Source: a bacterium (lineage in GTDB: Bacteria > Zixibacteria > MSB-5A5 > GN15 > FEB-12). From it: a stretch of 55,492 nucleotides of DNA. The notes below the pieces were generated by a model. The model was not told the DNA's origin. It searched no databases and saw only the letters and a program-made list of their open reading frames with translations. Made by a program: the position numbers and the translations under genes. The stretch lies in NCBI GenBank assembly GCA_043811375.1, contig JBDRNJ010000010.1, positions 1 through 55,492 on the forward strand, in the 5' to 3' direction. This document shows, piece by piece, positions 36,996 to 41,491 of this stretch; position 1 is the first letter of the stretch; every line of letters begins with the position of its first letter.

Positions 36996-37844
36996 GTGGT
37001 GGATATTATTACCGGGATAAATCGATTCATCGGCCTGCTGGTGGAGACTGCCCGACAATTCCGCCAAGGGCGCATCTGGTTGTTGCTGCTGGGCTACCTG
37101 GCGGTTAACTGGCTCATCCTGCAGGGATTCCACCAAAGCAGTTGGTCGGTCACCGGTACCCTGGTCACATTCTGGACCGCACTGGTGGATTCTGAGCAGG
37201 CAATCAGATTCACTCACTATCCCGACCACCTGGTGCTGTTGCCTGCTTATTTTGGCTGGGCTAAGCTGTTGCTGGCGTTTTTTGTGGAGGGACCGCTTCT
37301 GGGTGCGCTGGCCATTATGTTCCACGGTAGTTTCATGCATATCCCTTCCGGACAGCAGCATCCGATCAGAAGCGCACTCTCGGCCTGGTTTCATCTGGTC
37401 GCGGCCTGGGTTATAATCTACGGTTTGGTACTGCTGCTCTATCTGCCTCTGCCGCAACTGCTGGCGCCGTTGCTGGCCGGTTCCGGCAAGCGTATGCTGG
37501 CGTTTGAGTTCGTACTGCAACCGGCAGCATTCGCAACTATTCTGGCGCTGTTTTTCTTTGTCATACCCCGCATCGCAGTCTACCGGGAATCGTTACCGAG
37601 GGCACTGGCGCGATCGGTACCGGTCGTGGTCGAGAATCCGATAACCTGTCTGACTCTCGCCGCATTTATCCTGGCTATACCGATCCTGCTGATGAATATC
37701 CTCAACCGCGCCCCTCAGATTGCCGATCGGTTCACCCCGGAGACAGTCTACTGGCTGCTGGCGATCAGCCTGCCGGTCGACACGCTGTTTTATTTCTTCT
37801 GGATGGGCACCGCCGTACGTTTCCTGATCGATGAGGAGCGGTGA
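36996..37844 (+). CDS. Hypothetical integral membrane protein
   Basis: About 6 hydrophobic helices; co-oriented with the upstream genes. Confidence 0.75.
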   Translation: MVDIITGINRFIGLLVETARQFRQGRIWLLLLGYLAVNWLILQGFHQSSWSVTGTLVTFWTALVDSEQAIRFTHYPDHLVLLPAYFGWAKLLLAFFVEGPLLGALAIMFHGSFMHIPSGQQHPIRSALSAWFHLVAAWVIIYGLVLLLYLPLPQLLAPLLAGSGKRMLAFEFVLQPAAFATILALFFFVIPRIAVYRESLPRALARSVPVVVENPITCLTLAAFILAIPILLMNILNRAPQIADRFTPETVYWLLAISLPVDTLFYFFWMGTAVRFLIDEER

Positions 37845-37879
37845 ACACCCGGTAGAGACAATCAGCCCGCTCTACAACA

Positions 37880-37924
37880 GAAACGGCACTCGTCCCGCGA
37901 ACAAGCCGGGGACAAATACCGTTT
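37880..37924. terminator. Hairpin between convergent genes
   Basis: aaacgg..gtccc....gggac..ccgttt imperfect inverted repeat. Confidence 0.45.
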
Positions 37925-37980
37925 CCTGAGATGATCTTCGGCCGCGATCTTCGTCGGCAAAGACTCCTACGTGTCCGGAT

Positions 37981-38583
37981 TCAGTCTTTGGCAGCCAGCC
38001 GCTTCTCCAGGGAGGCGACCGTTTTGGTCAGCTTGTCGAGCTTGGATTCCATCTTCTTCAGATCAACCCGCTTGATCAGCTTGTACTCCCTGACTTCTTT
38101 GGCCAGCCGTGAAACCTCTTTGTGCGCCCTTGATGCCTCCTTAGCAATCCTGTCCCGCATCCCGGCGGTTGATTTCTCGGCTTTATCCAGCAGTTCCATG
38201 ACTGCTTTCTTGCGGTCGGATTTGTCCAGTTCGCCCTTTTTGATCAGATCATCGATGATCTTCTCCGCTCTGGCTTTGGTCACCTGAATGGCTCCAATCG
38301 AAGCCAACACTGTGTTTTTCAGAATAGACATGGACCTGACACCTCCTAATTGAATTATGTTTGAAAAAAGCTTGGTTGTCTGCCTGACATCTCCCCATAA
38401 AGCAGCTTCCGCCAGCACGATCCGGCCCAGAACCTGAAGAGATATATCCTCACCGGTATTTGAGTCCACCACCCGAATCTCAGCACCATCGCGTATAAGA
38501 TCGGCCAGTTCGGCCTGGGTAAGGGTCCGGCTGTCCCGCACATCGTACAGGCGCCGGTTGCTGTATCTTCGAATGATCCTCAT
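37981..38583 (-). CDS. PhaR-type PHA-regulator DNA-binding domain fused to a phasin (PhaF/PhaI-like) domain
   Basis: N-terminal RIIRRYSNRRLYD..S..LT...L.DLIRDG..IRVVD..TGEDIS; C-terminal LASIGA.....AEK..D.L.KKGE coiled coil. Confidence 0.88.
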   Translation of the reverse strand: MRIIRRYSNRRLYDVRDSRTLTQAELADLIRDGAEIRVVDSNTGEDISLQVLGRIVLAEAALWGDVRQTTKLFSNIIQLGGVRSMSILKNTVLASIGAIQVTKARAEKIIDDLIKKGELDKSDRKKAVMELLDKAEKSTAGMRDRIAKEASRAHKEVSRLAKEVREYKLIKRVDLKKMESKLDKLTKTVASLEKRLAAKD

Positions 38584-38596
38584 GTGCCTGTCATAA

Positions 38597-38623
38597 TATA
38601 GTGCACCGCACTATAATTGTCAA
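38597..38623 (-). promoter_or_regulatory. Sigma70 promoter with a palindromic operator (putative PhaR box)
   Basis: Minus strand TTGACA-17nt-TATATT; perfect inverted repeat TATAGTGC-acc-GCACTATA (38597-38615) covers the spacer and -10. Confidence 0.75.
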
Positions 38624-38682
38624 CGTTAAAACCGGTCTTCGGGTTTCAATTATCCTGTCGGAATCAATCCGCCACAATTGAG

Positions 38683-38711
38683 TGGACTCGGAGCTGATGA
38701 TGGCATATAAT
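38683..38711 (+). promoter_or_regulatory. Sigma70 promoter for the M42 peptidase-cysS operon
   Basis: TGGACT-17nt-TATAAT. Confidence 0.6.
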
Positions 38712-38853
38712 TAAGGTTTGCCGTAGTTAGCCTGGAAATCGGCCGGGATCGGGTTTCCCGGGGCGAACCATCCGGGCAACAGTGCGGCCGGGGAGGGTCA
38801 GTGACCGGTTGAGATTGATAACAAATTACTTTTCAGATGAGGATAGATGAACA

Positions 38854-39930
38854 GTGGACAGAGTAGAACTTCTATTGCAGGAAATTACGGAGGCCAACGG
38901 TGTCTCCGGTTATGAGCAGGAAATACGTTCGATATTGGCCCGCGAGCTGGCCGGCACAACCGACAGTGTTGAATACGACCGGCTGGGCTCTATCCTGGGG
39001 CGTAAGCAGGGCGGCAGCGATCGCCCCCGCGTCATGGTGGTGGGTCACATGGACGAAGTCGGTTTTATGGTCAAGGAGATTACCTCCGAGGGTTATATCA
39101 AGTTTCTGCCCCTGGGGGGCTGGTGGGGGCACGTGGCCCTGGGCCAACGGTTGAGGATTATCACTTCCCGGGGTCCGGTGACAGGCGTGGTGGGGTCGCA
39201 ACCGCCGCACCTGCTGACGGAAAAAGACCGCGCCAAGGTAATTGAGATAAAGGATATGTTTATCGACGTCGGCGTGCAGGAAAAATTCGACGTCGCCAAG
39301 AAACTGGGAATCAAGGTAGGCGATCCGATCATACCGGAAAGCCGGTTTACGATCATGGGCAACCGCCGCATGTATATGTCGAAGGCCTTTGATAATCGGG
39401 TTTCCTGCGCCATCATACTTGAGTTGATGCGCAAGTTCCAGAAGGCTAAGCATCCCAACACGATCCTGGGCTGCGCCAGCGTGCAGGAGGAAGTCGGATT
39501 GCGGGGCGCCAGTACGGTAGCTCACGTGGGGGACCCGGACGTCTGTATCGTGGTGGATATCGGTATCGGGCAGGATGTGCCACCTGAGGGCTTCAAGAAA
39601 AAAGAGAAACTCGGCGGCGGTCCGGCCATTCTCATCTACGACGCCCGGATGATTCCCAATATCAAGCTCCGCGACCTGTTTGTCACCACGGCCGAACAGA
39701 AGAAGATCCCCTACCACCTGACCTACATGGAGCGCGGCGCCACCGATGGCGGACCGATCCACCTGAGCCGAGCCGGGGTGCCGTCCATCGTTATTGGGCC
39801 GCCGGTGCGTTACATACACAGCCATAATGGAATACTGAACCGGACCGACTATGATAATACGATTAAGTTGATCGCCGAAGTTATCAAGAAGCTCAACTCC
39901 AGGACGGTAGATTCACTGACGGAGGGATAA
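38854..39930 (+). CDS. M42 family aminopeptidase
   Basis: GVSGYE, GHMDEVG, KAFDNR, VQEEVGLRGA, GATDGG, RYIHS. Confidence 0.95.
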   Translation: MDRVELLLQEITEANGVSGYEQEIRSILARELAGTTDSVEYDRLGSILGRKQGGSDRPRVMVVGHMDEVGFMVKEITSEGYIKFLPLGGWWGHVALGQRLRIITSRGPVTGVVGSQPPHLLTEKDRAKVIEIKDMFIDVGVQEKFDVAKKLGIKVGDPIIPESRFTIMGNRRMYMSKAFDNRVSCAIILELMRKFQKAKHPNTILGCASVQEEVGLRGASTVAHVGDPDVCIVVDIGIGQDVPPEGFKKKEKLGGGPAILIYDARMIPNIKLRDLFVTTAEQKKIPYHLTYMERGATDGGPIHLSRAGVPSIVIGPPVRYIHSHNGILNRTDYDNTIKLIAEVIKKLNSRTVDSLTEG

Positions 39931-41331: not shown

Positions 41332-41418
41332 TCTGCATTCGGTTGAATCGGCTCTCGGGCACCGTGAAAAACCCTTGACACTTGAAGTGATTATGCTTCC
41401 TTTTTTCAACGTCTGCAA

Positions 41419-41491
41419 GCCGGCGTAACTCAGATGGTAGAGTAGCTGATTTGTAATCAGCCTGTCGGGGGTTCGAGTCCCTTCGCCGGCT
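41419..41491 (+). tRNA. tRNA-Thr (anticodon UGU), CCA not encoded
   Basis: Cloverleaf: acceptor GCCGGCG/CGCCGGC, anticodon stem GCTGA-TT-TGT-AA-TCAGC, T-loop TTCGAGT. Confidence 0.97.

Follow-up and report, generated by a model that had tools for sequence, protein, structure and literature searches.

A PhaR-phasin-type gene of Zixibacteria with a conserved internal start: possibly a one-gene homeostat for a lipid compartment other than PHA

The locus and its predicted products

The window, that is, the whole 55,492-nucleotide stretch of Zixibacteria DNA that was analysed (contig JBDRNJ010000010.1), holds a single reading frame, flanked by an M42 peptidase gene (divergent) and a membrane-protein gene (convergent), that the initial annotation had read as two proteins in one: a PhaR-type DNA-binding domain joined to a phasin-like domain, the latter with a start codon and Shine-Dalgarno (SD) sequence of its own. 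The elements that it named are in place (Table 1). The near-perfect internal SD, AGGAGGT (38347-38341), is separated by 9 nt from the in-frame ATG at 38331; the upstream ATG at 38583, 11 nt past the end of the -10 box, has no SD and is near-leaderless; and the perfect palindrome (19 bases, TATAGTGC-N3-GCACTATA) sits within the promoter.

Table 1. Features of the gene and of its control region; positions are those of the window
Feature	Position	Strand	Basis
Long product, 200 aa: PhaR-type DNA-binding domain and phasin-related helical part	37981..38583	-	ORF and profile matches
PHB_acc_N (PF07879) DNA-binding domain	38404..38577	-	profile match; AF2 pLDDT 71-92, residues 1-60
Predicted short product, 116 aa (MSILKNTV...): NF047773/PF05597 helical coiled-coil protein	37981..38331	-	profile matches
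Internal SD AGGAGGT, in frame Leu-Gly80-Gly81 (TTA GGA GGT)	38341..38347	-	GGA conserved at Gly80
A/U-rich, weakly structured initiation region around internal start	38305..38370	-	GC3 dip and fold energies
Sigma70-type promoter TTGACA-17-TATATT	38595..38623	-	11/12 consensus matches
PhaR-type operator palindrome TATAGTGC-GGT-GCACTATA, core GTGC-RNY-GCAC	38597..38615	.	fills -35/-10 spacer, overlaps -10

The reading of the two halves is borne out by profile matches. PF07879 is matched over residues 3-59 with 62.6 bits (cut-off 25), and the 116-residue part that begins at M85 is clearly over the cut-off of NF047773 (46.8 bits; cut-off 35) and barely over that of PF05597 (30.1 bits; cut-off 28.8). 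The narrower profiles fail: the whole protein scores 61.2 bits on the PhaR equivalog TIGR01848, which asks for 109.45, and 31 on the phasin profile TIGR01837, which asks for 94.7. NF047773 also has matches in Synechococcus elongatus and Methanosarcina. The AF2 monomer has a mean pLDDT of 61.8 and a pTM of 0.37, and a predicted complex of the long and short forms scores 0.02 against a mark of 0.32 (controls not folded). Foldseek comparison of the structure with the PDB found no match at E<=0.001; a PDB sequence search returned coiled-coil matches only, with the C-terminus weakly resembling GCN4-type coiled coils (E 0.0055 and above). At its N-terminus the short form has 18-mers that are hydrophobic but weakly amphipathic (moment 0.16-0.22). 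An Atlas search led to phasin-family clusters at 0.85 (a lead only) and at 0.90-0.91. A search of viral contigs found no relative of the gene, and a search of sequencing runs found no RNA run among the matches listed.

A missed stop codon between two ordinary genes, the artefact that the initial annotation had itself raised, or a frameshift there, is ruled out by the frame, which is open over all 200 codons with neither stop nor frameshift between the halves, by the relatives, of which 97 among 102 distinct loci are likewise fused, and by one contig of a second metagenome run (X2, 90-95% alike) that covers 37800-38570 and carries the ORF without an indel.

Conservation of the two starts and of the operator

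Within the order, the protein is matched in 50 of 61 genomes. The 130 loci that were gathered came to 102 distinct ones when identical junctions were collapsed: 97 fused, 4 short-only and 1 cut by a contig end. Left out of the counts were L134 (no anchor), L050 and L212 (contig end), L203 (a gap of Ns over the PhaR half, with the operator kept), L206 (an assembly duplicate of L169) and L213 (a truncated second copy). In the phylum at large the phasin-related domain occurs in 162 of 201 sampled genomes and the PF07879 domain, nearly always in single copy, in 143; 40 more distant loci, picked to span families, are all fused. A tree built on the C-terminal part (103 rows, 113 columns, rooted at the midpoint) groups mostly by family, as vertical descent predicts. 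The fusion, as judged from these comparisons, is real and old. The counts overstate independence and significance since kin are not independent, yet separate clades show the pattern anew. There is also one similar fusion that clusters with a protein of Latescibacterota, and the design may on that account extend beyond the phylum. A search for short DNA-binding-only relatives gave a single match, P0309, an 89-residue PF07879-only protein on a 2.8-kb contig with 52% identity over part of the N-terminal half; it may be a truncation.

The proposal of a nested start stood or fell with conservation of the internal SD and Met, and it stands. All 97 fused genes have a start codon at that place (ATG in 95, GTG in 2), and GGAG is found at -20 to -4 of it in 95, compared with 12 of 304 other internal Met codons. 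At the more distant loci the internal start persists in 36 of 40 (35 with start codon and GGAG at the aligned column, 1 with an ATG two codons earlier). The codon for Gly80, which lies under the SD, is GGA in 44 of 44 cases in a 45-gene set, as against 65 of 339 for all other Gly codons and 4-10 of 28-45 at the other conserved Gly columns; GGA makes up 17.8% of Gly codons genome-wide. Over the 97 fused genes that codon (-5) is GGA in 94, against 18% among other Gly codons. Fourfold sites in the 45 genes are near saturation (median identity 0.36). Where Gly80 has become Thr (3 genes) or Gly81 has become Glu (2 genes), GGAG is retained in all five, and where Met85 has become Val, in 11 fused genes of several clades, the codon is GTG in 11 of 11 against a background of 29%. 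The internal SD is weak in two fused genes (L123, L126), and a weaker site goes with Lys81 in two. Because GGA and the start codon persist although synonymous sites are near saturation, the internal start is, by comparative evidence, under selection as nucleotides and not as residues.

The surroundings of the internal start also look like an initiation region. Third-position GC in the 45 genes falls to 0.37 in codons -13 to -7 and 0.44 in codons +1 to +7, compared with about 0.54-0.69 in bins farther away, and 45-nt windows around the start fold at -2.8 to -4.2 kcal/mol. Pairing with a generic anti-SD, used since the 16S 3' end was not found in the source genome, reaches -5 kcal/mol or better at 97 of 97 internal starts and at 19 of 93 upstream ones, with medians of -10.9 and -2.8 kcal/mol, respectively. 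Upstream starts of the relatives resemble that of the window in lying close to the promoter (median 13 nt past the -10 box) and mostly without an SD core (78 of 94). In 31 of 94 the ATG is 8 nt or less past the -10 box, so that such mRNAs would be leaderless or nearly so.

A promoter-like site precedes 88 of the 97 fused genes, and the operator core is found at 96 of these 97 loci and at all 40 distant fused loci, compared with 0 of 15 phasin-only loci. Its centre is RNY in 96 of 96. Core and centre agree with the published PhaR sites, TGC-RNY-GCA, as given in the cited passages for the motif YTKNTGCRNYGCANMAR (PMC12849132) and for that of Sinorhizobium meliloti (PMC12542648). In the window itself the 11-base core occurs once where 0.26 is expected, and 23 of 100 shuffles reach one, which is not beyond chance; the operator's weight therefore comes from its conservation. 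A wider regulon was considered and rejected: counts of the operator pattern in 61 genomes are close to those of a reversed-pattern control, and 12 additional sites, chosen by eye among the matches listed, lie mostly inside ORFs and have no common target. The regulon appears to comprise one gene. Upstream of three metagenome loci of one clade (L217, L218, L220) there is a variant operator, of the type TAACGCA-N-TG(C/T)GTTA and often present twice, over a TTGACA promoter.

Natural variants, neighbouring genes and origin

In 15 relatives the gene is short-only: the DNA-binding half is lost, and the short ORF and its SD are kept. On the tree such losses are scattered over at least six separate positions. 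The pattern of loss, together with the excess of phasin-related over DNA-binding domains in the phylum, indicates that the short protein is the unit that is retained and that the operator travels with the DNA-binding domain. One short-only gene (L047, G028:C44:80429-80860) gained, after loss of the PhaR domain, a Lys/Ala-rich C-terminal tail of about 28 residues that resembles the histone-like DNA-binding tail of PhaF. The converse variant occurs in one family, f13, where the internal start and its SD are lost in 4 of 4 genomes, an SD stands before the first ATG instead (-6.0 to -11.6), and no second phasin-related copy was found. Four lineages (L158, L163, L170, L178) have a strong upstream SD and yet keep the internal start. 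The ratio of long to short product is therefore not universally low, and the trade of starts in f13 is suggestive but neither exclusive nor unique.

Elsewhere in the order the gene has housekeeping genes for neighbours and stands alone among them, with a response regulator gene and smpB upstream and ligA or rlmN downstream. In the window it lies outside this usual neighbourhood, its flanks (36996-39930) being the M42 peptidase gene and a gene for a 282-residue membrane protein without a Pfam match. A long predicted hairpin at 37870-37925, between the convergent genes, is a possible shared terminator that a simple terminator scan did not list; farther along, at 41350-41440, reading frames resemble a tRNA gene read as protein.

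Outside the order the gene has a recurrent neighbour. A first search for ABC1/UbiB kinases, confined to the order, had one full-length match in 61 genomes and suggested no link; the phylum-wide search reversed that. An ABC1 kinase gene lies closely downstream of the fused gene at 4 of 4 loci in family f9 and 4 of 5 in family f14, and likewise downstream of 3 phasin-only loci, 2 second copies and the metagenome locus L214. Outside the order such kinases occur in 67 of the 92 genomes sampled, within it in 7 of 108; none was found in 4 f13 genomes, in 12 f7 genomes or in the source genome. The order that has few of them is also where the nested start is most conserved. Among 80 metagenome loci of unknown taxon that were examined, L214 has two operators and GGAGG with GTG ahead of its kinase gene, L217 and L220 have GGAGG with ATG, and L218 has lost the start; an acyltransferase gene follows at the unplaced L218 and L220, with a patatin gene too at L218. 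This context points to ABC1/UbiB kinases and lipid enzymes in preference to PHA. At L202-L205 and L162-L184 (f9, f14) the conserved gene order is nitrilase, response regulator, TPM/Psb32-like protein, PhaR-phasin gene and ABC1 kinase, with hrcA next in some; at L051 (G035:C37), in a 73%-complete genome without a match to the fusion, a two-piece ABC1 kinase adjoins a patatin gene.

Something can be said about the origin of the junction. The PhaR domain ends in Gly-Gly in 31 of 70 distant PhaR-domain proteins that lack the Zixibacteria type of second half, with GGA as first codon in only 3. In 6 of the 70, GGAG or GAGG precedes a start codon close to the junction, at varying spacing, probably by chance. 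The Gly-Gly motif is, on this comparison, ancestral and older than the SD, which makes these residues, and perhaps Met85, features of the protein as well. Three canonical-looking PhaR proteins (P0238, L254, L291) have Gly-x-x-Met (YG..MQ) at about the position of the junction, and the Met may predate the nested start. The simplest history that we can infer is that a phasin-related gene, one of the phasin-plus-kinase type, acquired a PhaR DNA-binding domain by fusion, with the SD retained in, or taken over by, the codons of the linker.

A proposed circuit, its rivals and its likeness to known systems

One strong promoter and one gene with two in-frame starts are likely to give two nested proteins, and that both are made in vivo we regard as very probable. 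Judging from the ribosome-binding signals, the SD-less first start would yield a scarce 200-residue PhaR-type repressor and the internal SD and ATG an abundant 116-residue phasin-related protein. Repression by the predicted long form of the shared promoter, at the palindrome, is also probable, if slightly less so. Because the whole of the short protein forms its C-terminus, the long form would reach the same surface as the short. Free surface would hold the repressor off the DNA and keep the gene on, with short protein as its main product; when no surface is left uncovered, long form that stays free would shut the promoter. This would be the PhaR-PhaP feedback loop in one reading frame, with sensor and coat sharing a single binding domain. 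That repression is released in this way, by sequestration through the shared domain, has perhaps a slightly better than even chance. The surface is probably not PHA and may be a membrane or a prenyl-lipid or neutral-lipid body, served ancestrally together with an ABC1/UbiB kinase; the odds that a non-PHA lipid surface is what is sensed fall a little short of even. Taken whole, a nested repressor and coat in a sequestration loop on a non-PHA surface is the account that we favour, with some confidence. The fuller formulation, of an ancient one-gene homeostat for a non-PHA lipid compartment whose PhaR domain was grafted on to a phasin-related protein that partnered an ABC1/UbiB kinase, with the ribosome-binding site of that partner kept in frame, is tentative.

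The most serious competitor, although an unlikely one, also has two products but makes the short form an anti-repressor, which would co-assemble with the long form through the coiled coil and dilute its DNA-binding heads, so that the ratio of starts and not a lipid surface sets repression. The short form is indeed the long form minus its DNA-binding domain, its C-terminus weakly matches GCN4-type coiled coils, PhaF and PhaI are described in part of the cited source as likely hetero-oligomers (PMC9049629), and the nested isoforms CheA(L/S) and SpaO(L/S) are described as co-assembling (PMC13515050, cited in part). Retention of the short gene and its SD in the 15 relatives that have neither repressor half nor operator, and the excess of phasin-related over DNA-binding domains (162 against 143 of 201), speak against it and suggest that the short protein has a job of its own; with extra operators at the background rate and no target shared among the 12 sites, a pure anti-repressor would moreover regulate only itself. 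Improbable, too, is a reading in which the internal SD survives as a fossil of the fusion, or acts as a ribosome pause signal, and the 200-residue fusion is the sole product made in useful amounts. Family f13 does live on the fusion alone (4 of 4), and distant fusions retain Gly-Gly without a start, but GGA, start codon and A/U-rich flank persist across families in spite of near-saturated synonymous sites, and a pause signal needs neither an ATG or GTG at fixed spacing nor a Val codon that is GTG in 11 of 11. Hardly any weight, marginally less still, goes to a short form made from its own transcript rather than by internal initiation. Selective decay of the phaQ part of phaQP has been proposed in Bacillus (PMC9049629, in the part drawn on), and mRNA processing or an internal promoter could act here; a weak candidate promoter, CAGACA-17-CATAAT (9/12), does lie at 38382-38354, but such sites occur in 6 of 97 genes where codon-resampled controls have 3.6 +/- 1.7 (maximum 8), and a conserved internal promoter was rejected.

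The PHA granule is the point at which the initial annotation has to be amended. Its one-gene circuit of scarce, granule-tethered repressor and abundant phasin is upheld by comparative sequence as regards the nested start, the weak upstream start and self-repression, and not as regards the granule. Both domains bear PHA-related family names and the operator is the PhaR consensus, so a synthase too divergent to detect, or formerly present in the lineage, would rescue the idea. The synthase, which the initial annotation had already missed in the window, was not found in the genome either: PhaC_N (PF07167) has matches in 0 of 201 phylum genomes, class III PhaC (TIGR01836) in 0 of 61 and class I PhaC (TIGR01838) in 0 of 1, with Caulobacter controls matching. 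PF05233, described in part of the cited source as the PHB-binding domain of PhaR (PMC10888616), is absent from protein and genome, its control matching, and none of the neighbour clusters that recur at the 102 loci was recognised as a pha gene. A wax-ester/TAG synthase profile is over cut-off in 0 of 201 genomes, a count that says little as its control is silent too (0 of 14 genomes). One Zixibacteria MAG has been reported to lack PHA synthesis genes (PMC11704145), and NF047773, as noted, occurs in Synechococcus and Methanosarcina. Of the marks of the PhaR equivalog, PF07879 and the operator are present, whereas the TIGR01848 score, PF05233 and a host PHA synthase are missing. With no synthase found in the phylum sample, coating of PHA granules by the phasin-related protein in vivo is unlikely, and a granule as the sensed surface is about as improbable as the fossil.

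Annotation pipelines call one protein here, often labelled PHA regulator or phasin, and, for most genomes of an entire phylum that is uncultured, probably overlook a second product; the PhaR-type domain is found there in 143 of 201 sampled genomes, and no PHA synthase was found. The gene would show that PhaR-phasin feedback can be reduced to some 600 bases, and nature has supplied the controls, short-only in 15 relatives and long-only in one family. Its kinase and acyltransferase neighbours tie a large class of 'phasin-like' proteins of non-PHA microbes to lipid handling. If the homeostat reading is true, the repressor gauges free surface with the very domain that it dispenses in a single-ORF, self-tuning coat circuit, Zixibacteria have an undescribed lipid or quinone body, and there is a handle on the bacterial ABC1 kinases that do not serve ubiquinone. 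In the literature covered, which takes in few subscription papers and no supplements, there is no report of a nested start in a PhaR-phasin fusion or of the gene in Zixibacteria.

Two N-terminal proteoforms from one gene by way of an internal start are not new, and the long and short forms of AerR reportedly arise in this way. CheA(L/S), SpaO(L/S), ClpB and IF2 are described likewise (PMC13515050, cited in part). Among all these nested isoforms, so far as the descriptions drawn on go, there is no autorepressor that regulates its own nested product. Pseudomonas PhaF and PhaI (PF05597) are likewise a long form that has a DNA-binding part and a short form that lacks it; they share phasin domain and coiled coil, but come from two genes, and the DNA-binding tail of PhaF is C-terminal, histone-like and non-specific (PMC5658603, PMC9049629, as far as the cited passages go). 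On cyanobacterial lipid droplets (cyanoglobules), which the cited passages distinguish from PHA bodies, sit ABC1 kinases and PG18/Sll1769 (PMC12223511, PMC6685665, PMC8956952). The likeness is one of gene context alone, a gene for a small, stand-alone helical protein beside that for an ABC1 kinase (L207, L208) in a non-PHA setting, and the source genome differs in lacking the kinase; the short protein may be compared with PG18/Sll1769 by analogy only.

The closest relatives are the PhaR/AniA-PhaP systems of PHB producers (Ralstonia eutropha, PMC12849132; Sinorhizobium meliloti, PMC12542648; Bradyrhizobium, PMC10888616), which, in the passages cited, have in common with the present gene PF07879, a TGC-RNY-GCA palindrome over a sigma70 promoter and a repressor of a phasin-type gene. 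In Zixibacteria, in contrast, one reading frame serves for both, a phasin-related domain takes the place of the PHB-binding PF05233, no PHA synthase was found, and the sole conserved site is the gene's own promoter, whereas autoregulation of canonical phaR is described as weak or variable (PMC12542648). In phaQ-phaP of Bacillus megaterium one autorepressed transcript likewise gives little repressor and much phasin, but from two ORFs, with an unrelated repressor, a ratio proposed to come from mRNA decay and PHB as inducer (PMC9049629, in the part drawn on). Outside the PhaR family by score, by domain and by the lack of a host synthase, the Zixibacteria circuit would yet work like the PhaR-PhaP loop and like Bacillus phaQP.
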